The translations under genes and the position numbers were made by a program. Below, one piece after another: positions 1,482-23,223 of a stretch of DNA of 64,000 nt; the stretch's first letter is position 1; every line of letters begins with the position of its first letter. Source of the DNA: a virus; IMG/VR virus record IMGVR_UViG_3300031963_008656, positions 1 to 64,000 of that record; one strand, 5' to 3'. Below the pieces are notes generated by a model. That model was not told the origin of the DNA. It did not search any database and was given only the letters and a program-made list of their open reading frames with translations.

Positions 1482-1514
1482 TCTCTAGTATAGCATCTCC
1501 TGCTTTACTGGTCA
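1482..1514 (-). promoter_or_regulatory. sigma70-type promoter (TTGACC-17-TATACT) driving the minus-strand tRNA and ncRNA region
   Basis: Minus-strand reading: TTGACC, agtaaagcaggagatgc, TATACT. Confidence 0.5.
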
Positions 1515-1580
1515 ACTTGTTTTGTAAATGCCCCGCCTTGTTGCAGGGTCTTTACAAACTTCGCTGTTTTTCTAACTTGT

Positions 1581-1613
1581 GTCTAGTATAGCACCAATCC
1601 AATTATTGGTCTA
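1581..1613 (-). promoter_or_regulatory. second, weaker sigma70-like promoter (TAGACC-17-TATACT) in tandem
   Basis: Same -10 context as 1482-1514 (gtctagtatagca on plus); the -35 matches 4 of 6. Confidence 0.35.
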
Positions 1614-1620
1614 CTGCCAT

Positions 1621-1652
1621 AAAAAAACCCGCCTACTTGGCGGGTTTTTTGG
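1621..1652. terminator. bidirectional rho-independent terminator
   Basis: aaaaaaaCCCGCCtacttGGCGGGttttttgg. A GC stem is flanked by an A-run and a T-run. It lies immediately 3' of the porin gene on the minus strand. Confidence 0.7.
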
Positions 1653-1669
1653 TTTGTACTACTTCTGTT

Positions 1670-2560
1670 TTAGAACTGTACGACCAACCCGCCTGCTACT
1701 TGTTTGACATCAGTGGCTGCTGAGGTTCCCTCAACTGTACGATACAAAACTTGTGCATAGGTCTTTTTGCTGAAAGCATACTCAGCACCTACGTTGTAAC
1801 TCTTGATGCCATTTTCAATGCGACCATAGCTGGCCTTCACTGTGACTGGTCCACCAAGTTTGTGTGCCACGCCGACCAACTGAGCACGGTTGGTGTTGGC
1901 AGCAACGCCTTTGTTGTCGCTTGCGCTGGCAAACACAGTGGTTGCACCAAATTTAGCACGAGCAGCCAACACGTCACTGGTTTCTGCGCCAGCTTCGTAA
2001 CGAGCATAAGTCAACACAGCAGGTCCAACTGCGGCAATCACGGATGCGGCATAAGGATCAGCGGCAGTGCCAACAGCACCAGTGCTACGATCAAAGTTAG
2101 CAGAGACATTGCCAAAGTTCACAGAAGTGAAAGCGGCATTGCTCAAACGCAAACCACGCAGGTTATGCACGTCGGCAGCTGAGCTACCAATCAATGTGCC
2201 AAATGGATCATTGTCGCTGATGGCCAAGAAGTGAGTGTGAACATTGCGACCAAGATCAACGCTACCCATTTTGTGAGCAATACCCACGGTGCTTTGGCGA
2301 TCGCCAAGTCTAGTGTCAGTACCAGTGTCTGGGCTGTTGGCTTGGATGCCGGTCTCGTATGTGGCACGAGCTGTTAATCCGCCACCTAAGTTTTCAGTAG
2401 CACGAATGCCAAAGTGACTCAAGTCATTGGCCATGCCTTGCACGGTGGAAGCACCAGTTTTGGTGTTGTCAAGGTAAGTGCCAACACGACCATAGATACC
2501 AACTTGTGCGCTTGCAACACCAGCAACTGCCAGGGTCAACGCAATTAGAACTTTCTTCAT
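1670..2560 (-). CDS. outer-membrane porin (Gram-negative general porin family) with signal peptide
   Basis: N-terminal MKKVLIALTLAVAGVASAQV signal peptide. Gly/Ala/Thr/Tyr-rich alternating beta-strand pattern. C-terminal ...GGLVVQF with terminal Phe, typical of OMP beta-barrels. Has its own promoter and terminator. Confidence 0.6.
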   Translation of the reverse strand: MKKVLIALTLAVAGVASAQVGIYGRVGTYLDNTKTGASTVQGMANDLSHFGIRATENLGGGLTARATYETGIQANSPDTGTDTRLGDRQSTVGIAHKMGSVDLGRNVHTHFLAISDNDPFGTLIGSSAADVHNLRGLRLSNAAFTSVNFGNVSANFDRSTGAVGTAADPYAASVIAAVGPAVLTYARYEAGAETSDVLAARAKFGATTVFASASDNKGVAANTNRAQLVGVAHKLGGPVTVKASYGRIENGIKSYNVGAEYAFSKKTYAQVLYRTVEGTSAATDVKQVAGGLVVQF

Positions 2561-2604
2561 AAGTAATTTTTCCTTGTTAATGAAATGATCAAATGTCGAT
2601 CATA

Positions 2605-2638
2605 GAGTATTATATAGCACAAACACTGAGAATGTCAA
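2605..2638 (-). promoter_or_regulatory. sigma70 promoter for the porin gene (TTGACA-18-TATAAT)
   Basis: Minus-strand reading: TTGACA, ttctcagtgtttgtgcta, TATAAT. Lies 40-75 nt upstream of the porin start. Confidence 0.5.
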
Positions 2639-3042
2639 AGAAAATGGCTACTTTCGCAGCCATTTTGGTGGTTTCTGTTACGAGGTATTTCCTACCCTAG
2701 ACGACCTTAAGCGGCCATCAAGAATTTTTCATCATTTGCAGATAAAAGTTTTGCTTGATTTACGGTCATCGCCTACCGTGCTGTCCACTCTGTTACTCTT
2801 TGCCCTGTCGAATCTAGGTCAGGCCCATCATAAAGAAACTTAATCTACGCTTAATGTTGTTAACAACAAGCATAATATTGGAAAAACAATTAATAAAAAT
2901 TTTGCTAAATTTTCCATATTACCATAACTCACAGTTTTTTATTTTCTCTTCGTCCAATGTGGTATCACGTGTAAAATAAAATACACCAAACACTAACCAA
3001 AATAACAAAAATAAAACATAACCTATCATTAAACTTCCTTAT

Positions 3043-3075
3043 GGTGGACCTGGGGGGATTCGCACCCCCGTCCAG
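3043..3075 (-). other. orphan tRNA-like T-arm and acceptor minihelix ending ACCA
   Basis: Minus-strand reading: ggac-GGGGG-tgcgaat-CCCCC-cag-gtcc-ACCA. It is a local hairpin only. No complementary 5' acceptor strand exists within 400 nt. G at position 55 is non-canonical. Confidence 0.3.
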
Positions 3076-3291
3076 AACACTTTTCTCTCGGCTTCATACA
3101 GCAATAACTCGCAGTATATATTTATTCTTTGGGCTTGTCAACTGCTTTGGAGATGATGTCATACACTTGTGCGTATGCATCAGTAATTTTGTCTAGTTGT
3201 TGTTCCGACACCAAGTCTGTGTCCTCCAGACTGACCAAGTCTCGGGCTAGATTTTCTTGTAGTTTTTTTATGGGATTGAGCACATACCTAT

Positions 3292-3825
3292 TTATTCATC
3301 CCCGCTATCTACTGGGATCCAGCCCAACTTAAAAAAGTCTTCCTGGATTTCTTCTGTGACATGTCCTTCGGGTACATATCTTTTAACACCGTCAGCATCA
3401 CCATTGCCCAGTCCATCGCCTATGCCCGAACAGTACCAATCAATATAGTCACCTTGTTCACGCATGTCGGCAACAATACCCCCGGCATAGCGCCACGAAC
3501 AACTGTAGGTCTCTCCCTTTAGCAAAGGCCATACTTCGTTGCGTTGCCAGTCTTGATTGCACAAGGCTGCGTAGATGTTTTGAGCGTAGGTATCGCTGGC
3601 CTTGGCTTTGTCGCAAACCCACTTGGTGCTACGCAAATCATATTCAAGATTGTTTTCTCGCCACCGTTCGTCGGCTTCGCGTTGAGCCTGATGTTCGTTG
3701 ATCATGCGTTCAAGATCTAAAGCTCGTTGAACATCTTCGTCAGTGGCAGGATCTCCTCCTTCCGCAATGACATCTTCAATTCTGCATTGACTGTGAAAGG
3801 TTCCGCGAGTAGGACTTTTGTTCAT
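3292..3825 (-). CDS. hypothetical protein; start moved to the internal Met to avoid overlap with tRNA-Leu
   Basis: The ORF-track frame is 3292..3903, but its first 23 codons overlap tRNA-Leu. Met27 gives 3292..3825. Trp/Asp-rich; no motif recognised. Confidence 0.5.
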   Translation of the reverse strand: MNKSPTRGTFHSQCRIEDVIAEGGDPATDEDVQRALDLERMINEHQAQREADERWRENNLEYDLRSTKWVCDKAKASDTYAQNIYAALCNQDWQRNEVWPLLKGETYSCSWRYAGGIVADMREQGDYIDWYCSGIGDGLGNGDADGVKRYVPEGHVTEEIQEDFFKLGWIPVDSGDE

Positions 3826-3831
3826 AATGTT

Positions 3832-3917
3832 TGGTACCAGAGACGGGACTCGAACCCGTATGCCCTTGCAAGCGGCAGATTTTAAGTCTGCTGTGTATAC
3901 CATTCCACCACTCTGGC
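3832..3917 (-). tRNA. tRNA-Leu (anticodon TAA), class II with long variable arm
   Basis: Acceptor gccagag/ctctggt (G1.T). Anticodon arm gcaga-cTTAAaa-tctgc. Variable arm about 15 nt. T-arm acggg-ttcgagt-cccgt. Discriminator A and encoded CCA. 86 nt. Confidence 0.8.
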
Positions 3918-3935
3918 TTTGCGTTATTTAATACA

Positions 3936-4010
3936 TGGTCCGGCGTAGAGGAATCGAACCTCTATAATGACTTTAGAAGAATCATGTCCTATCCGTTGAA
4001 CGAACGCCAG
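3936..4010 (-). tRNA. tRNA-Arg (anticodon TCT)
   Basis: Acceptor ctggcgt/acgccgg. D-arm gttc/ggac. Anticodon arm tgatt-cTTCTaa-agtca. T-arm agagg-ttcgatt-cctct. Discriminator A and encoded CCA. Confidence 0.8.
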
Positions 4011-4015
4011 ATGTT

Positions 4016-4091
4016 TGGTGGGCCAACTTGGAATTGAACCAAGACTCGACCGATTATGAGTCGGTTGCTTTACCATTAAGCTATTGGCCCT
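4016..4091 (-). tRNA. tRNA-Met (anticodon CAT); could be elongator Met, initiator, or lysidine-modified Ile2
   Basis: Acceptor gggccaa/ttggccc. D-arm gctt-aatggta-aagc. Anticodon arm accga-cTCATaa-tcggt. T-arm cttgg-ttcaatt-ccaag. Discriminator A and encoded CCA. Confidence 0.8.
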
Positions 4092-4113
4092 GTGCTACAT
4101 TGTAGCAGGAAAA

Positions 4114-4494
4114 CTATTTAGTGTCAACTGTTCCGTCGGCCAGGTGGTCATGTTTGATTTCTTTTACAGGATGCCCTAAAATGCTGGCAACAGAATTTTT
4201 GTAAGCAATACGTTTGTTGTTATGATCTCTAATGGCAATGGCTCGGCGACCAATCTCCTGAAGGCTCAACATTTGCTCCACGCCTGATTTGAGCTGCCAT
4301 TCTAGATCCCAGATAGCATGATGGATGTCGGTCATTGCTTGAATGTCCTCATCTAGTTCTGCGCTTTGTGGTAGTTGTCGAAACTTGTCCTCGTACCAAT
4401 CAAGTTCAACTTGGTTGGCGCCTTTGGTTCGTGCATGTTTTACTCTGGCAATGCAGAGTCGATCAATTAGTTCTAATACTGGAAGAAATTCCAT
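4114..4494 (-). CDS. hypothetical protein
   Basis: 126-aa ORF in the minus-strand gene series; no motif recognised. Confidence 0.5.
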   Translation of the reverse strand: MEFLPVLELIDRLCIARVKHARTKGANQVELDWYEDKFRQLPQSAELDEDIQAMTDIHHAIWDLEWQLKSGVEQMLSLQEIGRRAIAIRDHNNKRIAYKNSVASILGHPVKEIKHDHLADGTVDTK

Positions 4495-4548
4495 AGCATA
4501 CCCTTTCTATTTTGTATAGAATTATTATACAAAAATGCTAAGTGTTTG

Positions 4549-5313
4549 TCAACGGTCTTTGTCAGTTCTTACCAATTGAATTAAGCGGTATCCAGGATCA
4601 AATTCCCACCATTTTTTGCCAAACTGTGGATCTGCGGCAGCGGCGTGATGATTGTTGTGCCAGCCCTCTCCACCAGTCAAATATCCTACCAGCAGGTTAT
4701 TTGAACTTTGATCACGTGTGTCAAAATTTCTATATCCTGATGGACTGTGAGTGAGAGAGTTGGTCAGTGAACTGGCATGTTGCAACAATAGTGACGGAAC
4801 CAAATAAGCATACACTACTGCATAAGGATCTATCATGTAAACTGCCACCCCGACCAAGATAGTGTACAACCAATGATTGTAGTACATGTGCATGTGAAAT
4901 TTGGATTTCACAATCTCTGGAGCATAACTTAATTTTGGAGTAGCAGGTGTGAGTCTAAATTGCACGGCTAGATAACCGTATACCGCAGGTGAGTGCGGAT
5001 CATCTTTTGTGTCAGAGTGTCTATGATGCGCTCGATGTATTGCTACCCAATACAACATTGGTAAAGTTGTGCCAGGAATAGCAATCAATGTTCCTAGATA
5101 TTCAAACCATTTTGGTGCTTGAAAAGAACGATGGGTGATCAGCCGATGAACTGTTACAGTTCCGACTACCATCTTGATATAGTAGACCAACAGACATATT
5201 GCCCACTGCCATGCTTCACTGTTGAAGATAAAGTAGACCAGGATCACATGTAGACAGGCACTGTATGCAATCATTTCGTTGTGCGAAGGCACAAACCAGT
5301 TTTTCTTTTTCAT
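4549..5313 (-). CDS. membrane fatty-acid desaturase (acyl-CoA/acyl-lipid delta-9 type, three His boxes)
   Basis: HRLITHRSF, HRAHHRHSD and GEGWHNNHH match the HRLWSH / HRxHH / HNYHH boxes of stearoyl-CoA-type desaturases. Hydrophobic N-terminus. Confidence 0.7.
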   Translation of the reverse strand: MKKKNWFVPSHNEMIAYSACLHVILVYFIFNSEAWQWAICLLVYYIKMVVGTVTVHRLITHRSFQAPKWFEYLGTLIAIPGTTLPMLYWVAIHRAHHRHSDTKDDPHSPAVYGYLAVQFRLTPATPKLSYAPEIVKSKFHMHMYYNHWLYTILVGVAVYMIDPYAVVYAYLVPSLLLQHASSLTNSLTHSPSGYRNFDTRDQSSNNLLVGYLTGGEGWHNNHHAAAADPQFGKKWWEFDPGYRLIQLVRTDKDR

Positions 5314-5476
5314 GCAGATACTTATGCATCTACTTGCAGTAGGTCAGCCTCTTGATCCATTTCCATTTCGGTAATCAGCAGGTCAGCAAATTGCTGACAG
5401 AAGATAGCAAACCAAAGTTGGTCCATCGCTTCTTCGGGTGCGCCAGCGGCCCGCACCAGGCGTTCAAGTTCAGTAT

Positions 5477-5773
5477 TCATAGCCTGGAATCATAAGTGAA
5501 GGCAGCAAGATATCGCATGCTGGCACGGCTGGGAATGTGCTGATTACAGAACCGTTGGTATGCCGCACGCCAACGCTTTTGGACAGGTGCTGGCGCATGG
5601 CAAGCAAGATAATGCAAGTGGCCAAATCTGCGCCCAATGCTGATGTGATTGGGCTTCCAGCCTGCAGGATACCATTTGTCGCGAGTTTGCCAATTGTAGT
5701 TTACCCAGACACCCATTCGGCGTTCTTGCATGATATACTTTTTAGATATATCTTGTGGTCTAAATCGGTTCAT
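5477..5773 (-). CDS. hypothetical protein
   Basis: 98-aa ORF, start overlaps the upstream gene's stop by 4 nt (ATGA type). Confidence 0.4.
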   Translation of the reverse strand: MNRFRPQDISKKYIMQERRMGVWVNYNWQTRDKWYPAGWKPNHISIGRRFGHLHYLACHAPAPVQKRWRAAYQRFCNQHIPSRASMRYLAAFTYDSRL

Positions 5774-6564
5774 TTTTGCATCATCAGCGCATTGAAGTTT
5801 GCAGGAACAACAATTGTTTGCACACGACCGTTCTTGATACCTTCTGAGATATTCATCATAGCCTGCGCTTGCATGTAAGCAATTGACTGAGCACCTTGAT
5901 TACTCAATGCTTGCATACGTTCTGCTTCCATCTTAGCAGTCTTAACTTCAACTTCTTTTTGTTTCAATTCATTCTTGGCACGAACCAACTCATTTGCACT
6001 CGCAACCACAGAATCTGCAGGTACAATATTCCGAATCAACACTTGACCAACAACCAAACTACCATCAAGTTTTTCATCAGCCAAACTCTTTTGAATTTGT
6101 TCTTTAATTGCTTGTTCCATCACTTGGCGATTATCAGCCATGTCTAGTGCCTCGTACTTTCGGGCTTCTTTGTAGATGGCATTACGAGTGGTTTGAACCA
6201 TATAGTTGTACATCAAGTAGATGTCGCCGTTGTGCCGAGCATGGAATGCTTGACTCTTTTGGCTATACAACTCGGCTACCTGTGCTTGATTGATGTTATA
6301 GATAACCACTGCATCAAAGTCTTTCATTGTTGAGTTATCTTTAGCAACAGGTGTCATGTCCTCCAGTTTGACATTAACGTCCTTGATTGGGAATGTAAGA
6401 ACATCACCCCAAAAGGTTTGATTAAACGAGCCAGGCATTAATTCACCTTGCTGGACTTGTTTATCAAAGCCAACACGTACACCAACTTCACCTGTTTCGA
6501 TACGAGTACAACCTGTTGCCAGCACAGCCGCGGCAAGAACGGAGAGAGTCAAAATACGTTTCAT
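5770..6564 (-). CDS. SPFH/band-7 (prohibitin/stomatin-like) domain lipoprotein
   Basis: Signal peptide with lipobox LATGC. The ETGEVGVRVGF...AVVIYNINQAQVAELY segment resembles an SPFH domain, followed by a coiled-coil tail. Confidence 0.6.
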   Translation of the reverse strand: MKRILTLSVLAAAVLATGCTRIETGEVGVRVGFDKQVQQGELMPGSFNQTFWGDVLTFPIKDVNVKLEDMTPVAKDNSTMKDFDAVVIYNINQAQVAELYSQKSQAFHARHNGDIYLMYNYMVQTTRNAIYKEARKYEALDMADNRQVMEQAIKEQIQKSLADEKLDGSLVVGQVLIRNIVPADSVVASANELVRAKNELKQKEVEVKTAKMEAERMQALSNQGAQSIAYMQAQAMMNISEGIKNGRVQTIVVPANFNALMMQK

Positions 6565-6573
6565 TTTATTTCC

Positions 6574-6762
6574 TTAAAAAAGTACCACAAGGGCAAGTAG
6601 ACTACCAAAAGTAAGTATAGCACAAAATGCACTGTAAGTCAAGAGTTTTACCAAACTCCACGATTCTTTTCCGGACATGTTCCGTAGGTACTGAATGCCG
6701 AAAAAGAACATGCCAAACACAACAACAAAAGCCAATAGGATTCTAATCATCACACTCTCCAA
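6574..6762 (-). CDS. small two-TM membrane protein
   Basis: 62 aa, two hydrophobic segments; possible NfeD-like partner of the SPFH protein (inference). Confidence 0.4.
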   Translation of the reverse strand: MESVMIRILLAFVVVFGMFFFGIQYLRNMSGKESWSLVKLLTYSAFCAILTFGSLLALVVLF

Positions 6763-7223
6763 ATTTCTTCAAAACCTTCCGACAAGTCTGGCTCTTCCCA
6801 GTCCCGAATCATGCGAGCAATCACCTCAGATGGGATTGTTTTGCCCGGACGGCCGGCCAATCGTCTAGCCAATTCTTCAGGCTCGGGCGTTCGAAATACC
6901 ACAGCAATGGCCGAGTATTCCGGCAACATGCGAAACTTTTTGGCCCGGCTTGCCCGTGTGGTGCTGGTCTGATCCCAGATGATGTCGTTGTTGTTAGCCT
7001 GTGCAGTCAACGCATGGTTGGTCATCAGGCGAACAGCAATAGGCATGTATTCTTCAAACACTTCTGAATAGGTCTTGCCTTGGCTCCGGGCATAATCTTC
7101 CACCCAGGGGTCTGTGCTGACCACACTCAAGCCCAAGGCCCAGACCTGGTCTTTGATCCAGGTGCTTTTGCCTGATCCTGGCACTCCTACCAACATGTAC
7201 AATTTAGGCACTTTCAACTCCAA
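6750..7223 (-). CDS. P-loop NTPase/kinase (AAA_33 / polynucleotide-kinase-like)
   Basis: Walker A LVGVPGSGKST near the N-terminus; 157 aa. Confidence 0.6.
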   Translation of the reverse strand: MELKVPKLYMLVGVPGSGKSTWIKDQVWALGLSVVSTDPWVEDYARSQGKTYSEVFEEYMPIAVRLMTNHALTAQANNNDIIWDQTSTTRASRAKKFRMLPEYSAIAVVFRTPEPEELARRLAGRPGKTIPSEVIARMIRDWEEPDLSEGFEEIWRV

Positions 7224-7431
7224 AATGTTCTTTGATATTCTTTGCAGAAAAGGTCAACGCTCTATCCCATTGATTATTACCGTGCCCGTTACCAATGCTT
7301 GCTTGTTCAATACATTCTCTCACAATCAACTCGGCGAATTTTTTACACTCTGGCATATCCCAGTGTCCAATGCCAAACATATCTTTTTCGTAGCCAGCCT
7401 GTTCAGCAAGTTGTCGAATTCGTTCGTTCAT
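7204..7431 (-). CDS. small protein, member of the HFGVE-tail paralog set
   Basis: Shares MNExI..LAEQAG, KFAELIVREC and C-terminal HFGVE with the ORF at 7798-8091. Confidence 0.45.
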   Translation of the reverse strand: MNERIRQLAEQAGYEKDMFGIGHWDMPECKKFAELIVRECIEQASIGNGHGNNQWDRALTFSAKNIKEHFGVESA

Positions 7432-8979: not shown

Positions 8980-9372
8980 TTACTCTCCTTGTGTCTGCAG
9001 GGCTTTCAAAAACTCCACACATGCGGCCTCGGTGCGCTTGGTCACTACCACCCGGCCACCCCAGAAGCCCACATACAGACTGCGGTGCTCCACAAACTTC
9101 ACTTCACCGTCAGCACCAGTATGCTTTTGACGAGCCGCTGGCTTTGCAGGCACTGCCTTTTTTGCAGGTGCTTTAGGCACTGCGGCCACCACAGGCTTTG
9201 CTGTCACTGCCTTTGCAGGTGCAGGCACTGCAAGCGGACGATGCTCAAAGCCATGTTTCTTATCATACTTGGCAATGGCTTTTTCATCCATGCCCCATGT
9301 GGCCAGTAGTCGGCGAACTTCAGTGCCGGGCAGTTGATTCCAGTGTATGATAGGGTCAGTCCAGTTGGTCAT
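8980..9372 (-). CDS. hypothetical protein with basic PAK/PAAK repeats (histone-H1-like tail)
   Basis: AVPAPAKAVTAKPVVAAVPKAPAKKAVPAKPAARQK. Confidence 0.5.
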   Translation of the reverse strand: MTNWTDPIIHWNQLPGTEVRRLLATWGMDEKAIAKYDKKHGFEHRPLAVPAPAKAVTAKPVVAAVPKAPAKKAVPAKPAARQKHTGADGEVKFVEHRSLYVGFWGGRVVVTKRTEAACVEFLKALQTQGE

Positions 9373-9382
9373 GTTGGGCTCC

Positions 9383-9583
9383 TTAATAAGATTGATGTGA
9401 ATGTCCGATACGATACACGGGTGCGCCTGGCGTCAAATCATTTTCCGGAGTATACACTTCCGGCAACATGATATCCGCAAACTCACCGTAGGAGTAATAA
9501 CCAGACTCGGTCACTACCAAGCGAGCATCAGCGGGCAGGGCACGGAGTGCCTCAATCATTTGTGCTACAGTTATAGTGGTCAT
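9383..9583 (-). CDS. small hypothetical protein
   Basis: Start moved to Met56 (MTTITV...), so the gene lies downstream of the consensus promoter at 9605-9640 with an AAGGAG Shine-Dalgarno. Confidence 0.4.
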   Translation of the reverse strand: MTTITVAQMIEALRALPADARLVVTESGYYSYGEFADIMLPEVYTPENDLTPGAPVYRIGHSHQSY

Positions 9584-9604
9584 CTCAAGCTCCTTAGTGT
9601 CTAT

Positions 9605-9640
9605 GTGTGTATTATAGCAAATTGGGAATTTTTGGTCAAC
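9605..9640 (-). promoter_or_regulatory. consensus sigma70 promoter, repeat unit 1 (TTGACC-17-TATAAT)
   Basis: Minus-strand reading: TTGACC, aaaaattcccaatttgc, TATAAT, acacacatag. One of three copies of a roughly 50-bp unit of near-identical sequence. Confidence 0.55.
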
Positions 9641-9836
9641 CGTGCAGAGCAGTCCAGGTTTCCCAGGGCTGATCGCGAATGTATTGTATTGCCTTAACAC
9701 CACCTTTAACCCTGCAGGCATACTGCATGGCTGTGGCAAATTTGCCACGCTGACGATGTGTTTTGCGAGCTAATCCTACCGGATTGAGCTTCCATTTCCA
9801 CAGCGAGTCATATTTGCCGCGAATCATCTTGTGCAT
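9636..9836 (-). CDS. small basic protein
   Basis: 66 aa, GAGGAG Shine-Dalgarno upstream, driven by the promoter repeat unit 2. Confidence 0.4.
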   Translation of the reverse strand: MHKMIRGKYDSLWKWKLNPVGLARKTHRQRGKFATAMQYACRVKGGVKAIQYIRDQPWETWTALHG

Positions 9837-9857
9837 GGTGGCTCCTCTGTTGTCTAT

Positions 9858-9893
9858 GTGTGTATTATAGCAAAACGGTGATTTGGTGTCAAC
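9858..9893 (-). promoter_or_regulatory. consensus sigma70 promoter, repeat unit 2 (TTGACA-17-TATAAT), with the -35 inside a 9-bp hairpin
   Basis: Minus-strand reading: gcaaaacgg-TTGACA-ccaaatca-ccgttttgc-TATAAT. Confidence 0.55.
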
Positions 9894-10218
9894 CGTTTTG
9901 CTTCACGCGAACGTCCGTGTTCAGCGCAGGTGCATACTTTTGTATTAACTCGCGCTCCAACTTATGTGCGGCATCTTTGCCACGCACAATGTCCACGATA
10001 GCCACGTTCATTGCTTCAGTACCGTTTGCGCGAATTGCTTCGTACAAGTTCCAGCCTTTGTCTTCTGTGCGGCTACGGTAGATGTGCTTGTTCACACGGC
10101 TACGGAGCGACATGTTGATTGTGCGCTGGGTTTTTGCGGTAATACCAATGTAGTACTCAAATCCAATTTGGATCATGTACACTATGTGGCTGCGATCAGT
10201 ACGTTTCTTTCTCATCAT
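9889..10218 (-). CDS. GIY-YIG nuclease domain protein (homing-endonuclease-like)
   Basis: [17 protein letters not shown] matches the GIY...YIG spacing, with downstream R and E residues. 109 aa. Confidence 0.55.
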
Positions 10219-11447: not shown

Positions 11448-12989
11448 ATGTGTGGTGTTCTATACGTAAAAAGCACCACTGATATACCGCTAGAAAAGCA
11501 CAACCAAGCTCTAGAAATTTTAAAAGATCGCGGTCCAGATTTTACCTGTTACCAACATCATGGTCGTGTGTTCTGTGCGCAAACAGTTCTGCACATCACT
11601 GGCAACACACAATTTTACAATCGACAGTCAGATGATTTTTTTGCATTCAATGGCGAAATCTACAACTATCGCTGGTTTGGTTCCTACAGCAACGACACTG
11701 AGCTGATGTATCGTGCTGTAAAAGACGCACCAGTAAAAAAACTCAAATACTTTGAAGGACCGTGGGCGTGGGTGTATGCTCAAGGCGACCAAGTGATATA
11801 TGCCACTGATCCACAAGGCGAAAGATGCCTGTACAGATATCAAGACAACAACATACTGATTGTGAGTTCTGAGGTGGCAGCTATTTTGGTATACATCCGA
11901 CCAAAATTACAAGACATTGATTACACAACCAAACACTATCCAATTTGGCAAAACACGCCTTGGCAAGGAATTGAACGATGTGTGCCAGGTGTGATGTATG
12001 ATCAGTCGGGCAACACCACAGTGATTGACAGTATCTTTTCATGGGCCAAACCCAGTAGTATTCAAACATTGGACCAGGCCTGGGAAGAATATCAACCCTT
12101 GTGGGAACGGGTAATCACTGACATGCGGCCAGAAACATCTTATGCCTGCACATTCAGTGGTGGGCTTGATTCTGGCGTGGTTGCAAAAAGTCTTCCACAA
12201 AGTCAGCACTATTATACCACCAACATGCTGGGCAAAGACCCAGTGAGTGAACAATCTCAACGTATGTTGGAAGGCAGTCAACGAGACAAAATCATCAACA
12301 TTGGTGTTACAGAACAGCAATGGGCCGATGCATTTGAGCAAGTGTGTCGTCGCACACTGATGCCAGTTCAAAGCTACAGTTTTGTTGGCCAGTGGATAAT
12401 TGCTCAACACTGCAAAGAACGTGTGTTGTTTACTGGTGTAGGCGCTGATGAACTGTTTGGTGGCTATGGCGTTTACTCACAGCTTGAATACACCACACAA
12501 ACAAGTGCAAGTCCTTACAGTTCATTTGGCAATGACACTCACGCTCAACAACTGTGGCAACAATGTTTGCATGCACATCAAGGTCAAGCAGAGCCAGCCA
12601 CTCTGTTGATGGATTATATCACTCAAATTTGTGCAATAGACATGCGTGGCATTGACGTTTGTACCATGGCACATGGCATTGAACCACGCTCGCCATTTGT
12701 GCATCCTAAGATCATTCGGTTTGCACTTGGCCTTCCCATGCACCTGAGGCGCGGCAAACCTTTGATTCGTCGACAGTTTTTGGCCTCCTGGCCTGAAGAA
12801 ATGATACTTCCCAAAAAAGGATTCACTGGACATTGCAATGATTCATTGCCTTGGATGAAATTCACTGTGCCAGATCAGGCTCGGGCACCACAGTGGAAGC
12901 AAATTGTCAAAACTGGATTTAGATATTATGCCAATCAATATCTTGATCAAACCACTCAGGACTTATCCGCACATGCGGATGTTGCTTGA
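11448..12989 (+). CDS. asparagine-synthase-like amidotransferase (N-terminal Ntn Cys glutaminase plus PP-loop ATP pyrophosphatase)
   Basis: Begins MCGV (Cys2 nucleophile of class II GATase). PP-loop TFSGGLDSGVV. About 513 aa, AsnB-like in length. Confidence 0.7.
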   Translation: MCGVLYVKSTTDIPLEKHNQALEILKDRGPDFTCYQHHGRVFCAQTVLHITGNTQFYNRQSDDFFAFNGEIYNYRWFGSYSNDTELMYRAVKDAPVKKLKYFEGPWAWVYAQGDQVIYATDPQGERCLYRYQDNNILIVSSEVAAILVYIRPKLQDIDYTTKHYPIWQNTPWQGIERCVPGVMYDQSGNTTVIDSIFSWAKPSSIQTLDQAWEEYQPLWERVITDMRPETSYACTFSGGLDSGVVAKSLPQSQHYYTTNMLGKDPVSEQSQRMLEGSQRDKIINIGVTEQQWADAFEQVCRRTLMPVQSYSFVGQWIIAQHCKERVLFTGVGADELFGGYGVYSQLEYTTQTSASPYSSFGNDTHAQQLWQQCLHAHQGQAEPATLLMDYITQICAIDMRGIDVCTMAHGIEPRSPFVHPKIIRFALGLPMHLRRGKPLIRRQFLASWPEEMILPKKGFTGHCNDSLPWMKFTVPDQARAPQWKQIVKTGFRYYANQYLDQTTQDLSAHADVA

Positions 12990-17925: not shown

Positions 17926-18634
17926 TAGGGCGGTCCAGAAGTTTGTGTTCCTTCAAGTATTGTAACACATATTCCGACCAAAATCTATGACCATCGGCTC
18001 CAAAGTGATAACTTTTGGGATTCACATGCTCAAATCCGTTGTTTTTTAGTATGGCATTCCAACTGTGGTCTCTTGAATATGGCTCAATGTAATGCCCTTG
18101 CCAATCTCTTAGATTAAATAAATCACTAAATGTACTGTTGCCACTGTAGAATAAATGTCGTACATTTAGATCTTTCAACCGACAATGCAGGTGCCATATT
18201 TTGTTATGCCATTCATCTGTTTTTTGAGTCCAGTTGACATCCAAAATGTACTGACGATACCTATCTTCAAGCTCTGGTGGTACCATGTCCACACCACTGG
18301 CGTTTACTTGATAGCATCGGCCTTCATACTCCCATTCTTCTCGTTCCCAAGTGGTCCATTGGATTACCATCACAGTGTCATACAAACGGCTATAGTTCTC
18401 ATGAATCCACTTGTTAGTGGTACGCAGTATGCGGTCATTGCTGGCTGCTGACTCAGCATCACAGTAAAATTCAGTGTTGAGCATTCGGCTCAATTGCTTG
18501 CCCCAGCTGGCTTCCAAGTTGATTGGATGAGGTCTACGGTCAATGCCATATCTACCATCATCCACAGCAAAGCAATCAGGCACCACTGCTTCGGCAGCCG
18601 CTGTATGGCTGCATCCATTTACATACAAGATCAT
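17906..18634 (-). CDS. GCS(H/F)(T/S) N-terminal-motif paralog 1 (SGNH-like fold with a Cys in the nucleophile position?)
   Basis: MILYVNGCSHTAA... N-terminus, similar to 20528 and 51474. Confidence 0.45.
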   Translation of the reverse strand: MILYVNGCSHTAAAEAVVPDCFAVDDGRYGIDRRPHPINLEASWGKQLSRMLNTEFYCDAESAASNDRILRTTNKWIHENYSRLYDTVMVIQWTTWEREEWEYEGRCYQVNASGVDMVPPELEDRYRQYILDVNWTQKTDEWHNKIWHLHCRLKDLNVRHLFYSGNSTFSDLFNLRDWQGHYIEPYSRDHSWNAILKNNGFEHVNPKSYHFGADGHRFWSEYVLQYLKEHKLLDRPNEISTD

Positions 18635-19107
18635 TTTTGTAGCAGTACTTTTTCGGTCTCTGCGGCAACCACACGCTTGCGCAGGCTACTGGATGAGAAT
18701 GAGTGATCTCGGCCGTTGAATACTAGTTCAATCCCGCGGTCATAGCATTCGTCGCGACCGGTAAAGTCTTTGTGTTCGTATTCTACTCCCAGTACTCGAA
18801 CATCTAATGGCAGAATTAGTAGAAGGTCACGTAGATCTTGTTCGGTTTGGTACACAACAACTTCATCAACGTAACGGCATGCAGCCAGCTGTATCTGTCT
18901 CTCCACAATACTTTGTATCGGACGATTCTTAGTCTCAGGCCTATCGATAGTTGGGTCCGTTTGGAGCCCACAGATGAGGTAGTCACAGTGATTTTTTGCT
19001 TCAGAAAGCATGGCAATGTGGCCTGCGTGGAGCATGTCAAAGGTTGAGAAAGTGATGCCAATTTTTTTGCCTTCTGCTTTGAGTTGTTTGATGTGATTGA
19101 ATATCAT
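18631..19107 (-). CDS. cytidylyl/adenylyltransferase (HxGH nucleotidyltransferase; TagD / RfaE-domain-II-like)
   Basis: GITFSTFDMLHAGHIAML matches G.FD.LH.GH. Start moved to Met41. Confidence 0.6.
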   Translation of the reverse strand: MIFNHIKQLKAEGKKIGITFSTFDMLHAGHIAMLSEAKNHCDYLICGLQTDPTIDRPETKNRPIQSIVERQIQLAACRYVDEVVVYQTEQDLRDLLLILPLDVRVLGVEYEHKDFTGRDECYDRGIELVFNGRDHSFSSSSLRKRVVAAETEKVLLQK

Positions 19108-19505
19108 GATACCTCGCTCCTGCCATCGCCAAGATCTCGCTTTTGAACATACATGCCGGAGTTCTTGATGGCTTGTTCTTGTTCCCATGTTTCCATCACA
19201 ACATGGCGGCATACATTTTGAAACCAACGGTCAACAATGTCCCCATCAGTGTCTGTAGGTTTCATCATATAGCCAGCCTTTACCAGTCGAGCCACAAAGA
19301 TTTCATTCCAATCCAACTCAAATGCACCTTGATGCAGATTGTCAGGATCCACATCCATACTGAGCACAGCCACGTAAGGTTCTCCCTTTTCAGTAGCAAG
19401 TTGTTTTTCAGTTTTAGCTGGTGGTTCGGCAACTCTAGGCTTAGTGACTTTTTCTACCACAGGTGGTGGTTTCTTTTGAGATTTTTTAAACCAATCAAAC
19501 ATCAA
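19104..19505 (-). CDS. hypothetical protein
   Basis: 133-aa ORF. Confidence 0.45.
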   Translation of the reverse strand: MMFDWFKKSQKKPPPVVEKVTKPRVAEPPAKTEKQLATEKGEPYVAVLSMDVDPDNLHQGAFELDWNEIFVARLVKAGYMMKPTDTDGDIVDRWFQNVCRHVVMETWEQEQAIKNSGMYVQKRDLGDGRSEVS

Positions 19506-21240: not shown

Positions 21241-23223
21241 TTAGGCTGCTAGTTTTGCCCTGGCGCCAGCATCTCCGCGTTTGGCAACGTCTACCTGCGT
21301 GTCAGCGTTCAAGCATTCAACTGTGGCTTTTCCAAAATTTCTACGTCTAGCAAAATAAAATAGTTCTAAGAAACGTGGAAAGCTCATAGTTTTATCTTCT
21401 GGAAACTCCAGTTGATATTCTCTTGGCGCATGTACAAGTTTGTGATCAAAGCTGAGATATTCCCAGATGTTGTAGTCTAATTCTAAAACCTCAGGATAAG
21501 TGTTCATAGCATCGTAAGCCACATGGTATCTGCGTTGGAATCGCATGATGTTCTCCAACAACACAGGCGGTAAATCATAACGACTCATGAACTTTTCTAA
21601 CATGTCAAAGATATTGTGATTTTGTTTTTCCACATGCATGTTCAACACAGTTCTGTGTATGAGGTTCCATCCGTGAATTTCAATGCCAATCTTGGGATGA
21701 TTGATTCGGCCATTGGTCATCCAACTGCGATAGTACTCGCGAACTTCTTCTTGTTCGCGGTGGATCCATTCATGACCTTGCACGTATTCAAACAGGTCTG
21801 CATAAAACTCGCTGTAGGGCACACCCTGATACTTGAACACCAATCGACTCAACAGTGTGCTGATGCCATTGATGTGGAAGGTATTGATAAACCATGAAAA
21901 AATATGTGCTTCCATCATGACATCAAACGGCATGTCTTTGGTGCCAGTGATAATGTCAATGGCTTCTTCAATGTGTTCGTTGGAGTATGATCCAGAAAAA
22001 TAGTCTGTTACACTTTGATTGGTAATCTTAAACAACTTCTTCTGCAACAGGTTCATTTCGGCATTTTCCAACAACTGAGCCTGGAACACCGTGAGACCAG
22101 TATGATTGCCCATTTCAAACAAAGTCCAAAAGTTTTTCTTCCAAGACTCAAGACTTTCACCAGGTAGGCCCAAGATAAGTTCAGTGTAGGTTGGAATGTT
22201 ACGTTGCTCACACAGCTCAAATACTTCGTTGAGCTTGTTCATTTCCATGTTTTTGCGACGAATGTTTTCCAATACATCCAAGTCAAGACTTTGCACACTC
22301 AGCGTTAGACCTTGATTGAAGCCTCGGGCATCCAGCAATTTTTTAACAATGTCCACAACTTCTTTCTTTTGATTCTTGGCCCAGGCCACAGAGAAAGTTC
22401 TCGGAGAACCATACTTTTCTTGACATTCAATAATCTTGTCTGCAATCAAACTGTCACGTTCGGCAAACATGCCAAAGTTAGCGTCAGTAATTGATATGAA
22501 ATCAAAGTTGTGCTTAGCCATCCATTCCAACTCATGGTACACACGTTCTAAACCAAACTTCTTGACCTTGTTGTATGTCAAGCTACCCCAGTCACAAAAC
22601 GTACAAGCAAATGGGCAACCACGAGAAGTTTCTAGTGTGCCTTGCCACATGATGTCAGGATTTGCAGCCATTAGGTCATCAAATACACCTGCCAGATACG
22701 GGCTAGGAATATCTTCAAGAGTTTCAATGCGCTTGGCATCACCTGTGCTTATAGCTTCGCCGTCTCGATTGATCAGCAAGCCAGGTATTGACTCCCAGTC
22801 TTTGCTGTCATATGCCAGCATGAGATTTCTAAATGTGATTTCACCTTCGTAGCAAATCACAATGTCCATGAATGGTTCTTTGCGAAACAGATCTTTGTCT
22901 GTGATTGCAGGTTCGGGACCGCCAAATATGGTCAACACGCCAGGATTGATCTCCTTGAGCCTGCGAGCCAATGCATAGTTGAAATTGTGATTCCACACAT
23001 AAGTGCTAAAAGTCACAACATCATTTTCAGCCAGTCGTTGTGCAATTGGCTCTATGTTGTCCCGGCGCCACACCCATTCAGTCACTTGCCATGCATCACG
23101 TATGCTGGGTTCCGCAACTGCATAACTCCAAATCACACCTGCTGAGTATGGCAGGTAGTAGGCATTGAGTTCTTTAGGACCTTGTTGGAAGTTTGGTTGT
23201 ACCCAGGCAATTTTTCTTTTCAT
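21241..23223 (-). CDS. B12-binding radical SAM enzyme (class B; putative C-methyltransferase or related)
   Basis: 660 aa. The N-terminal about 150 aa is B12-binding-like. Radical SAM cluster ETSRGCPFACTFCDW. Confidence 0.7.
   Translation of the reverse strand: MKRKIAWVQPNFQQGPKELNAYYLPYSAGVIWSYAVAEPSIRDAWQVTEWVWRRDNIEPIAQRLAENDVVTFSTYVWNHNFNYALARRLKEINPGVLTIFGGPEPAITDKDLFRKEPFMDIVICYEGEITFRNLMLAYDSKDWESIPGLLINRDGEAISTGDAKRIETLEDIPSPYLAGVFDDLMAANPDIMWQGTLETSRGCPFACTFCDWGSLTYNKVKKFGLERVYHELEWMAKHNFDFISITDANFGMFAERDSLIADKIIECQEKYGSPRTFSVAWAKNQKKEVVDIVKKLLDARGFNQGLTLSVQSLDLDVLENIRRKNMEMNKLNEVFELCEQRNIPTYTELILGLPGESLESWKKNFWTLFEMGNHTGLTVFQAQLLENAEMNLLQKKLFKITNQSVTDYFSGSYSNEHIEEAIDIITGTKDMPFDVMMEAHIFSWFINTFHINGISTLLSRLVFKYQGVPYSEFYADLFEYVQGHEWIHREQEEVREYYRSWMTNGRINHPKIGIEIHGWNLIHRTVLNMHVEKQNHNIFDMLEKFMSRYDLPPVLLENIMRFQRRYHVAYDAMNTYPEVLELDYNIWEYLSFDHKLVHAPREYQLEFPEDKTMSFPRFLELFYFARRRNFGKATVECLNADTQVDVAKRGDAGARAKLAA

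Follow-up and report, generated by a model that had tools for sequence, protein, structure and literature searches.

Separate envelope-directed cargo genes, including a mobile compact porin cassette, in the accessory region of a large uncultured tailed phage

Phage genes directed at the host envelope

Phage genes of all three types considered here, encoding porins, fatty-acid desaturases and SPFH proteins, have been reported previously. Complete, exported 16-strand porins are carried as cargo by lambdoid phages (Lc of PA-2; NmpC of the DLP12/qsr' prophage; 'OmpD/OmpC' in Escherichia and Salmonella phage records), and E. coli OmpC has matches of 60-80% identity in 42 phage records. These records are 35-50 kb long, and we take them to be temperate lambdoid phages. 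Further, an OmpL-like porin lies beside glnK-amtB in viruses of oxygen-minimum zones (PMC8115048), and oprP occurs in amoC-phages (bioRxiv 10.64898/2026.06.18.733297); these genes, found on environmental phage contigs, have been read as aiding uptake during infection. Among desaturases, experiments with the lipid desaturases of cyanophages (vFAD; Roitman et al. 2017, PMC5776448) showed that they act at delta-9 of C16 chains.

The window studied here, meaning the whole 64-kb stretch of DNA that was analyzed, derives from a tailed phage that is large and uncultured; it has a PHROG DNA polymerase match (E 3.9e-193) and, elsewhere, virion-protein families. The family-B polymerase it encodes shares 51% identity with the enzyme of Sinorhizobium phage Phosso and 47% with the enzyme of Atu_ph07, and the nearest polymerases are those of jumbo phages, 350-490 kb in size. 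A betaproteobacterial host is probable, given that the tmRNA matches Rfam beta_tmRNA (111.5 bits, cut-off 84) and that, of named bacterial porins, the nearest is from a Burkholderiales MAG. Between 1.6 and 7.2 kb, on the minus strand, lies a changeable accessory-gene region carrying three separate envelope-directed cargo items, namely a porin, a desaturase and an SPFH module:

1622-1650, strand not assigned: porin hairpin terminator, 12-bp stem, A-run upstream and T-run downstream
1670-2560, minus: porin gene, 296 aa; signal peptide 1-18, predicted 16-strand barrel, L2 at 72-88, L3 at 108-137, C-terminal Phe
2609-2638, minus: sigma70-type porin promoter, TTGACA-18-TATAAT, 12 of 12 consensus positions
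2639-3155, minus: two-piece (permuted) tmRNA gene, tag ANDEKFLMAA; a neighboring unit outside the envelope genes
3113-3141, minus: near-consensus tmRNA promoter, 11 of 12
3292-3825, minus: 177-aa ORF (as listed, to 3903, it overlaps tRNA-Leu)
3832-4090, minus: tRNA cluster, tRNA-Leu(taa), tRNA-Arg(tct) and tRNA-Met(cat)
4099-4127, minus: near-consensus promoter upstream of the tRNA cluster, 11 of 12
4114-4494, minus: 126-aa ORF (p126), kept in relatives L005, L075 and L077
4524-4552, minus: perfect sigma70-type promoter; its -35 hexamer includes the desaturase stop codon
4549-5313, minus: compact delta-9-type membrane fatty-acid desaturase, 254 aa; FA_desaturase match, His boxes
5322-5480 and 5477-5773, minus: two small ORFs, 52 aa and 98 aa, that accompany the desaturase in relatives
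5770-6564, minus: SPFH/Band 7 lipoprotein, 264 aa; lipobox Cys19, SPFH core at about 55-182, long helix 183-221
6574-6750, minus: SPFH partner, 58 aa, two hydrophobic (putative transmembrane) segments
6750-7223, minus: AAA_33 P-loop kinase-like gene, the upstream neighbor in the same tightly packed gene run

The two-piece tmRNA, the three tRNAs and four further ORFs were absent from the preliminary description of this interval; the tmRNA gene also contains a terminator-like hairpin (2641-2666).

A compact porin in a self-contained cassette

Profile searches bore out the identities and positions that the preliminary description had given to the porin, the desaturase and the SPFH protein (Porin_4, FA_desaturase and Band_7, respectively). 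For the porin, the Porin_4 match (E 2.8e-25; 90.2 bits, cut-off 27) aligned residues 7-278 with profile positions 4-307 of 310, and the N-terminus (MKKVLIALTLAVAGVASA, with Q following the cleavage point) aligned to the PorB signal peptide, while the C-terminal end reads VVQF. The AlphaFold2 model (pLDDT 91.5, pTM 0.85) gave 17 strand segments by DSSP, which amount to 16 strands once 38-45 and 49-59 are counted as a single bulged strand. The closest PDB fold was Omp32 (E 4e-17, TM 0.77), followed by BpsOmp38 and PorB, and both F296 and R138 are invariant across 36 diverse relatives. Hence the 296-aa product is a predicted exported beta-barrel, rather than a non-barrel cytoplasmic protein, of the compact general-diffusion type in the Omp32/PorB/BpsOmp38 class, with surface loops L1, L5, L6, L7 and L8 of just 2-7 residues each in the model.

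The gene forms a monocistronic unit of promoter, gene and terminator. Its promoter is a perfect sigma70 consensus, an AAGGA ribosome-binding site lies 9 nt ahead of the ATG, and the terminator (AAAAAACCCGCC-TACTT-GGCGGGTTTTTT) lies 20 nt past the stop codon and is flanked by U/A runs on both sides, so that it could act bidirectionally. Consensus or near-consensus promoters are not specific to the porin, as they also occur at the p126 ORF, the tRNA cluster and the tmRNA gene. Specifically, the window holds three perfect sigma70 consensus promoters (0.04 expected), all on the minus strand and within its first 10 kb, and six relaxed-consensus promoters (0.24 expected). This excess would be in keeping with early, host-type transcription, and the region is apparently transcribed by the host sigma70 RNA polymerase.

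Our searches place the porin in a new compact clade of 285-312 aa with trimmed extracellular loops L5-L8. All 38 full-library clusters with E < 1e-30 fall in this size range where full length, full-length porins of at least 320 aa first appear at about E 1e-12, and in the alignment porins named as bacterial carry insertions at L5, L6, L7 and L8. Clade members occur at 63 IMG/VR loci, on contigs of up to 524 kb, and every full-length copy keeps the signal peptide and the C-terminal F. Among 20 clusters none had an organism-named member of the clade, no named bacterial member was found, and the identity of the window porin to those tied to a bacterium does not exceed about 35%, over partial alignments. 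Short exact peptide patterns, run in two scans against 185,579 species genomes of bacteria and archaea, returned no relatives; such patterns would overlook any relative without the L3 motif that falls under roughly 80% identity, and a compact host porin could exist in an unsampled lineage. The suggestion that a phage-encoded general porin is unusual thus holds for this family, which gave zero tblastn matches in 50,697 phage records, but not for phage porins at large, given the 42 lambdoid records and the published OmpL-like and OprP genes.

The clade occurs in several unrelated gene neighborhoods and travels between phage genomes as a cassette. Only the porin is common to the window and four other loci (L001-L004), at 87-90% nucleotide identity and with unrelated flanks, which, with its own promoter and terminator, upholds the proposal of a moron-like autonomous cassette. 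The neighborhoods inspected were of five kinds, all phage-like (L003, L005-7, L008, L079/80 and L082-85, the last being syntenic with L005-7), and no companion gene family was present at more than 25 of the 71 loci; homologues of the 177-aa ORF were found close to porins in several other viral loci. Purifying selection acts on the clade (dN/dS 0.11-0.18, for copies whose dS reaches 0.46), with L3 the least variable loop and residual variation among close copies concentrated in L4, L6 and L8.

Possible roles of the porin during infection

Taken as a whole, the region is best explained, on a slight balance of probability, by three independent cargo items: a porin cassette that would add channels, a desaturase and an SPFH module. 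Most likely, the porin would raise outer-membrane permeability early in infection. The protein would be exported through Sec, cleaved after Ala18 and, through its C-terminal Phe signal, inserted by BAM into the outer membrane of the host. With its latching (L2) and constriction (L3) loops retained but almost no surface loops, it would then provide further channels through which small hydrophilic solutes could diffuse during phage replication. The connection with nutrient uptake is a weak one: relatives do have TctC genes near porins, but at a frequency (5 per 895 kb) no higher than around desaturases (3 per 893 kb) or SPFH genes (2 per 559 kb). Further, an extra porin would be of no obvious help if outer-membrane diffusion does not limit the host.

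The main rival to the permeability reading, which we regard as possible but distinctly less probable, is receptor replacement or superinfection exclusion, a model reportedly put forward for the Lc porin of lambdoid phage PA-2. Here, the loop-trimmed porin would take the sites of host porins and keep solutes flowing, and with the phage receptor loops absent, infected cells, and later their debris, would adsorb fewer phages, whether this one or its competitors. The short L1 and L5-L8, set against the L5-L8 insertions of bacterial relatives, accord with this model, and the variation in L4, L6 and L8 fits surfaces selected from outside. The OmpC/NmpC-type porins in lambdoid records supply a receptor-biology precedent for phage porins, and the shifting of the cassette among differing genomic neighborhoods is likewise consistent with this model. 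However, a single lytic cycle does not allow new porin to displace host porins already in place, the surroundings of the cassette showed no integrase or lysogeny function, and the closest polymerase relatives are jumbo phages. The conserved internal L3 and low dN/dS point to selection on the channel itself, although this is compatible with the model.

Desaturase and SPFH module as separate cargo

The desaturase matches Pfam FA_desaturase (E 8.5e-18) and carries the boxes HRLITH (residue 56), HRAHH (93) and HNNHH (219), plus NSLTH (185-189). These align with desaturase profiles and with mouse SCD1 (E 5.9e-11), and the nine metal-binding histidines (H56, H61, H93, H96, H97, H189, H219, H222 and H223) are all invariant in 118 homologues. 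The match to NCBIfam DesA (E 4.6e-28) scores 98 bits against an equivalog cut-off of 400, and the protein is about 130 aa shorter than the 385-position model. Relatives are encoded on at least 204 IMG/VR stretches, while the only matches in phage records were Pelagibacter phage Mosig (32%) and Acinetobacter phage MD-2021a (26%), with no tblastn match in cyanophage records at E 1e-3. Using oxygen and a host electron donor, this di-iron enzyme would place cis double bonds in existing acyl chains, which would make the membrane more fluid.

The SPFH protein matches Pfam Band_7 (E 7.3e-18) and phrog_200 (E 3e-31), has relatives in 193 phage records and bears a lipobox, LATG followed by the invariant Cys19. 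Its structure model is of moderate confidence (pLDDT 64), and fold searches matched HflK/C, prohibitin, stomatin and QmcA-YbbJ. The small membrane partner proposed earlier is real, being conserved 12-154 nt upstream of the SPFH gene in 59 of 76 viral loci, but it starts at the ATG at 6750 and is 58 rather than 62 aa long; this ATG shares one base with the stop codon of the upstream AAA_33 gene. Scans of Pfam, NCBIfam and PHROG returned no NfeD match for the partner. The two-helix protein and the SPFH lipoprotein, which would face the periplasm, may together make up a two-gene module that, by analogy with HflK/C and QmcA-YbbJ, could build a cage or microdomain on a membrane surface.

We consider it unlikely that the porin, desaturase and SPFH pair form one co-selected program that remodels membrane fluidity and organization, as the preliminary description had proposed. 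All three products would act on the envelope, and their families do recur near one another on further viral contigs: in L013 the gene immediately upstream of the porin encodes a desaturase, in L057 a desaturase gene is found within 3 kb of the porin, desaturase and SPFH genes share a 5-kb contig (L086), and porin and SPFH genes both occur on L071. In the window, however, they belong to different transcription units, with the tmRNA, the tRNAs and three promoters between them, and among close relatives they are gained and lost independently. Specifically, L076 has the AAA_33, p98, p52 and desaturase genes but lacks the SPFH pair, a radical SAM gene adjoins the desaturase in L075 and L077, and other insertions sit beside the porin in L005-7 and L082-85. 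Further, in the majority of porin loci neither of the other two gene types lies within 10 kb, and the same absence of any widespread porin companion noted above argues against a single module. Far less probable still, and largely refuted, is that the porin is a recently captured host gene of no use to the phage or a bacterial/phage assembly chimera, since, although it is host-like in kind and its GC (0.506) slightly exceeds the window mean (0.442), its GC3 (0.44) is like that of other phage genes, the cassette is flanked by phage genes in many independent assemblies (ENA, JGI, Logan), selection has persisted across diverged copies, and neither the peptide-pattern scans nor the cluster names gave a close bacterial source.

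Relation to known systems

In fold and sequence, the best PDB matches to the phage porin are Omp32 of Delftia/Comamonas acidovorans (1e54), BpsOmp38 (8jto) and PorB (4aui), with fold E values of 4e-17 to 7e-16 and TM scores of 0.76-0.79. Strand order, L2, L3 and the C-terminal Phe are common to all, whereas the phage protein is only 20-22% identical to them and 30-50 residues shorter, mainly in the extracellular loops. The lambdoid porins, in contrast, are of the Porin_1/OmpC type, about 340-365 aa long, with full surface loops and near to host porins, while the window porin is of the Porin_4 type with trimmed loops, in a phage with a jumbo-phage-like polymerase. Viral OmpL and the phosphate-selective OprP belong to other porin families and are closely host-like; the OmpL-like gene adjoins its cognate transporter gene, whereas the window porin stands alone, in a clade for which no host counterpart was found.

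Cyanophage vFAD and the window desaturase are both phage-borne membrane desaturases with three His boxes, but the photoprotection rationale for vFAD is not transferable because the host here is probably a heterotroph. The window SPFH protein, in turn, has the fold of bacterial SPFH-NfeD pairs (HflK/C; QmcA-YbbJ, 8z5g) and, like them, a small membrane protein gene immediately upstream. However, a lipobox Cys takes the place of the N-terminal transmembrane helix as anchor, and the partner, unlike theirs, is a 58-aa two-helix hairpin; among phage proteins, its match is to the 'lipoprotein' family phrog_200.

The compact porin and its viral relatives

The gene that the preliminary description took for a porin (1670-2560, minus strand) encodes a 296-aa protein matching Pfam Porin_4 over nearly its full length (E 2.8e-25; 90.2 bits, cut-off 27; residues 7-278 of 296). 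Its N-terminus (MKK...ASA/Q, with cleavage predicted after ASA) aligns residue by residue with the signal peptide of PorB, and its C-terminus reads GGLVVQF, of which F296 is invariant among 36 relatives. An AlphaFold2 model, for which 36 diverse relatives served as input (pLDDT 91.5, pTM 0.85), contains 16 strands if residues 38-59 are taken as a single bulged strand, as in PorB. Loops L2 (72-88) and L3 (108-137) are full-sized in this model; L3, the inward-folded constriction loop, contains a DPFG motif as well as two short helices. L4 has 10 residues, and L1, L5, L6, L7, and L8 have only 2, 2, 5, 3, and 7, respectively. General porins of Betaproteobacteria led the Foldseek matches: Omp32 (Comamonas/Delftia acidovorans) ranked best (E 4e-17, TM 0.77), with BpsOmp38 of Burkholderia and PorB of Neisseria next; the best 50 PDB fold matches were, without exception, 16-strand porins or engineered OmpF derivatives. 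A cytoplasmic, non-barrel protein is thus not what the predicted signal peptide, 16-strand barrel, and fold matches describe. Rather, profile, terminal signals, and predicted barrel place the product in the Gram-negative general porin class (Porin_4; Omp32/PorB).

Beyond this general assignment, the protein appears to belong to a distinct, loop-trimmed clade. Searched against 1.84 billion cluster representatives, the porin returned 805 matches; the full-length members of the 38 clusters with E < 1e-30 span 285-312 aa, and full-length porins of at least 320 aa first appear at about E 1e-12. Of these longer matches, two bear the names "porin [Burkholderiales bacterium]" and "porin [Pseudomonadota bacterium]", and another sits beside a second porin gene on a 2.25-Mb bacterial contig. 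In a joint alignment, loops L5 to L8 are precisely where the bacterial porins bear insertions (as many as 26 residues in L8), so the compactness is seen in the sequences and not in the model alone. Scanning IMG/VR with an 8-sequence alignment as the query recovered the compact clade at 63 viral loci (29-88% identity), on contigs of up to 524, 352, and 233 kb. All full-length viral copies have the MKK signal peptide, and every full-length copy at the loci examined ends in Phe. The inspected neighborhoods were phage-like in each case (three-digit L numbers denote loci, as distinct from loops L1-L8):

L003: RNR, PAAR, ClpX, S21, and HSP20 genes
L005-L007 and L082-L085: syntenic relatives of the window
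L008: homing endonucleases and a ligase
L079/L080: Phage_DsbA and PolB

None of the 20 compact-porin clusters that were looked up carried an organism name or isolate genome, and the porin had no tblastn match among 50,697 phage records. Neither of two pattern scans of 185,579 species genomes (Bacteria and Archaea) detected a relative; since such scans require exact short peptides, this suggests, at that strength, that compact porins are absent from bacteria. No conserved partner gene accompanies the porin, the commonest neighbor family occurring at 25 of 71 loci and at variable distance. The apparent novelty lies in the clade: its members are compact, diversified, and cassette-like, reside on large phages, and have no bacterial counterpart among our search results.

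A PHROG scan of the window, whose genes lie mostly on the minus strand, identified a DNA polymerase of family B (phrog_262, E 3.9e-193) as well as an exonuclease and families of virion proteins. The polymerase is closest to those of Sinorhizobium phage Phosso (469 kb; 51% identity) and Agrobacterium phage Atu_ph07 (490 kb; 47%), with further jumbo phages ranking below them, and megablast of positions 1500-7300 against the 50,697 phage records gave zero nucleotide matches. Together, this kinship and the lack of nucleotide matches over that span point to an uncultured, probably large, tailed phage. As to its host, the window's tmRNA scores 111.5 bits against Rfam beta_tmRNA (cut-off 84) and 115 bits against tmRNA_permuted, and both the nearest structural relatives of the porin and its nearest named sequence relative are betaproteobacterial. 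Further, TctC/Bug proteins, which recur near porins in relatives (see below), are expanded in Burkholderiales. A Burkholderiales-type host is likely.

Transcription, mobility, and possible role of the porin

The preliminary description had likened the porin gene, with its own promoter and terminator, to a moron. Both elements are present in the predicted transcription map, which was derived from the sequence and reads as follows on the minus strand:

7223 to 4549: packed gene run of AAA_33 (P-loop kinase-like, 6750-7223), 58-aa protein, SPFH gene, p98, p52 (ORFs named by their length in aa), and desaturase
4524-4552: promoter, leading to p126
4099-4127: promoter, leading to tRNA-Met, tRNA-Arg, tRNA-Leu, and p177
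3113-3141: near-consensus promoter, leading to the tmRNA and a terminator-like hairpin at 2641-2666
2639-3155: two-piece (circularly permuted) tmRNA with tag peptide ANDEKFLMAA
2609-2638: promoter TTGACA-18-TATAAT (12/12 consensus), leading to the porin and its terminator
1622-1650: porin terminator, a GC-rich hairpin of 12 bp with A and T runs on its flanks, 20 nt past the stop codon

With a promoter and a terminator of its own, the porin would form a clean one-gene unit. The 64 kb contain three exact-consensus promoters where shuffles predict 0.04; all three lie on the minus strand and within the first 10 kb. A slightly relaxed pattern matches six times against 0.24 expected. Predicted strong host-type promoters are the norm across this region rather than a peculiarity of the porin. 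The third perfect promoter (TTGACA-17-TATAAT, 9864-9892, minus strand) is located upstream of the gene run whose last member is the desaturase and is a candidate promoter for that run; the desaturase stop codon sits within the -35 hexamer of promoter 4524-4552. A match of positions 1619-1692 to the Rfam Trp_leader was rejected (26 bits, cut-off 41), as it represents the terminator hairpin. Two-piece tmRNAs of phages have been described previously (PMC9004378); here, the intervening stretch of ~194 nt is not conserved in the relatives L005-L007. In all, the minus strand has tRNA genes for Asp, Glu, Leu, Arg, and Met, located at 799-873, 1077-1151, and 3832-4090. Because the listed ORF 3292-3903 overlaps tRNA-Leu, the true start of p177 is probably the ATG at 3825, giving 177 aa. 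Homologues of p177 recur near porins at L014, L031, L036, L038, and L044.

Morons are independent transcription units distributed among phage genomes (PMC3594210), and the porin gene, with its predicted signals and its recurrence in differing phage contexts, fits that description on both counts. Specifically, four loci (L001-L004) share with the window only positions 1640-2509, at 87-90% nucleotide identity, a span that comprises the mature-protein coding region and half of the terminator. No other ORF of L001-L003 matches the 64-kb window, and L004, a 4.5-kb contig, has flanking genes as in L003. With only the porin in common, the gene occupies at least two unrelated neighborhoods, as judged from the loci compared. 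The similarity to L001-L004 ends at codon 18, which leaves signal peptide and promoter outside the shared span; this boundary could reflect recombination or just faster drift. L005-L007, by comparison, are syntenic with the window over the porin, tmRNA, p177, tRNAs, and p126, with ~5.6 kb of additional genes separating p177 from the tmRNA (TctC twice, one 2OG-Fe(II) oxygenase, and unknowns) and four additional genes past the porin. Two TctC solute-binding proteins, TauD, and 2OG-Fe(II) oxygenases are found in this p177-tmRNA interval at L005 2863-9196 and in L082-L085, close relatives of this phage; the insertion is absent from the window.

Comparison of porin copies gives dN/dS values of 0.11-0.18 (dS up to 0.46), and the GC3 of the gene (0.44) falls within the 0.38 to 0.59 of other phage genes. 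Across 120 close homologues, variability peaks in the signal peptide, L4, and L8, is slightly raised in L6, and is lowest in L3. This pattern looks like that of a functional gene long resident in phages, and not like that of a fresh capture or a chimera.

The role we favor is that the porin would add outer-membrane diffusion capacity early in infection. In support of this, the predicted promoter matches the host-type consensus, the pore-lining L3 is conserved, L2 is retained, and the gene bears the signature of purifying selection. That TctC/TctA transport genes are common cargo of the same phages also argues for it, more weakly, given that TctC is no commoner by porins than by the other two families. 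A dedicated porin-TctC/TctA uptake pathway is rejected on the same count, the frequency of TctC being no different around desaturase and SPFH loci. In L079/L080, a porin of 33% identity is followed, ~880 nt downstream and past one opposite-strand ORF, by a TctA membrane transporter gene (L079 9836-11290).

Alternatively, the porin may serve by presenting no receptor surface, an idea reportedly put forward for the lambdoid porin Lc. The trimmed surface loops suit this explanation better than they do added diffusion; the two are compatible. There is also a broader scenario that we regard as improbable, in which large phages of an uncultured betaproteobacterial host keep and swap their own lineage of minimal "stealth" porins, evolved in phages until the host counterpart became unrecognizable. 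With the pore and the trimer-latching loop kept and the surface loops gone, such porins would feed the infected cell and give competing phages nothing to bind. PADLOC anti-phage defense models returned nothing meaningful for the five proteins tested. Should the compact porins prove functional, large phages of the virulent type would directly change outer-membrane permeability, a little-studied step in infected-cell metabolism, and would offer natural minimal, loop-less 16-strand porins as an aid to studying which role porin loops play, be it that of receptor, antigen, or gate.

The desaturase and the SPFH pair

The desaturase annotated at 4549-5313 (minus strand) also held up, its 254-aa product matching Pfam FA_desaturase (E 8.5e-18; 65.5 bits, cut-off 29.7). 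The three His boxes previously described are in register with those of mouse SCD1 (E 5.9e-11) as HRLITH, HRAHH, and HNNHH, together with NSxxH, and fit HX4H, HX2HH, and HX2HH plus a ninth His. Each of the nine (H56, H61, H93, H96, H97, H189, H219, H222, and H223) is invariant across 118 homologues, and these nine correspond to the SCD1 metal ligands. By profile and His boxes, the protein is a predicted delta-9 membrane desaturase. It is related to NCBIfam DesA (NF049918; E 4.6e-28) without belonging to that equivalog, its 98.4 bits lying far under the cut-off of 400 and its length ~130 aa below the 385-position model. Homologues are mostly 245-255 aa (median 250), and relatives are encoded in at least 204 IMG/VR stretches; among phage records, matches were restricted to Pelagibacter phage Mosig and Acinetobacter phage MD-2021a. 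One viral contig, L013, carries two desaturase paralogues (466-1218 and 9180-9899), one of them directly upstream of a porin.

Similarly, the ORF at 5770-6564 (minus strand; 264 aa) is, as had been proposed, an SPFH protein, matching Pfam Band_7 (E 7.3e-18; 65.7 bits, cut-off 23.6) and phrog_200 "lipoprotein" (E 3e-31), with relatives in 193 phage records. Its predicted lipobox (LATG/C), in which C19 is invariant and G18 nearly so among 12 relatives down to 47% identity, points to lipoprotein anchoring. A PDB sequence search with the protein found nothing. The AlphaFold2 model is of moderate confidence (pLDDT 64 overall, 75-90 in the core), and all 50 of its 50 best PDB fold matches were cage-forming SPFH-family proteins or vault protein, including HflK/C, prohibitin, stomatin, erlin, and QmcA-YbbJ; the stomatin SPFH domain superposes on it at an rmsd of 2.5-3.3 Å. 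Metagenomes hold 5,364 homologues, the top 120 all at least 84% identical, and copies occur in 75 IMG/VR loci at 46-98% identity. Within the pair (window 5770-6750; L166-L239), the SPFH protein stays 84-97% identical across more than 100 metagenome clusters with many different flanks.

The small membrane partner exists as described, with its extent corrected: it is 58 aa long and starts at the ATG at 6750, which shares one base with the stop codon of the preceding gene, AAA_33. Two hydrophobic helices enclose a conserved R-x-[LM]-[ST]-G-K-E-x-W loop, and a homologue lies 12-154 nt upstream of the SPFH gene in 59 of 76 loci; of the remaining 17, several are truncated on that side. The partner drifts to 31-60% identity, far faster than the SPFH protein. 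The layout is that of an SPFH-NfeD operon and in that respect the 58-aa protein resembles a paired membrane partner; the phage partner, however, has 58 aa and is not NfeD, no NfeD domain being matched in Pfam, NCBIfam, or PHROGs. The pair is a very widespread, highly conserved phage module that seems experimentally tractable.

Joint occurrence and relation to known systems

The suggestion that porin, desaturase, and SPFH lipoprotein act together as one membrane-remodeling unit did not survive comparison with relatives, which carry the desaturase without the SPFH pair and beside other neighbors. At L076, the order is AAA_33, three other ORFs, p98, p52, and desaturase, with the SPFH pair absent; at L075 and L077, a radical SAM gene follows the desaturase. 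The three families do recur close together at L013, L057, L086, and L071, as would be expected if all were common cargo of one changeable region. The radical SAM protein of L075/L077 shares its domain pair with a B12-binding radical SAM protein of the window, where further metabolic cargo lies at 11448-12989 (plus), 18631-19227 (minus), and 21241-23223 (minus) and comprises asparagine synthase-like, cytidylyltransferase-like, and B12-binding radical SAM proteins.

Phage-borne porins have precedents. General porins are found in 42 lambdoid phage records; viral OmpL-like (PMC8115048) and OprP (bioRxiv 10.64898/2026.06.18.733297) porin genes have already been published, and UniProt entries named "OmpC porin [uncultured Caudovirales phage]" resemble the porin fold at 17-19% identity. 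Delta-9 desaturases have been experimentally established in cyanophages (PMC5776448), and the desaturase described here would be an example, from a phage infecting a heterotroph, of a function whose demonstrations have until now come from cyanophages. Like the SPFH pair, the desaturase adds a new member to a family already known from phages. Our results overturn no current ideas and, set beside these known systems, widen the list of envelope-directed phage accessory genes.
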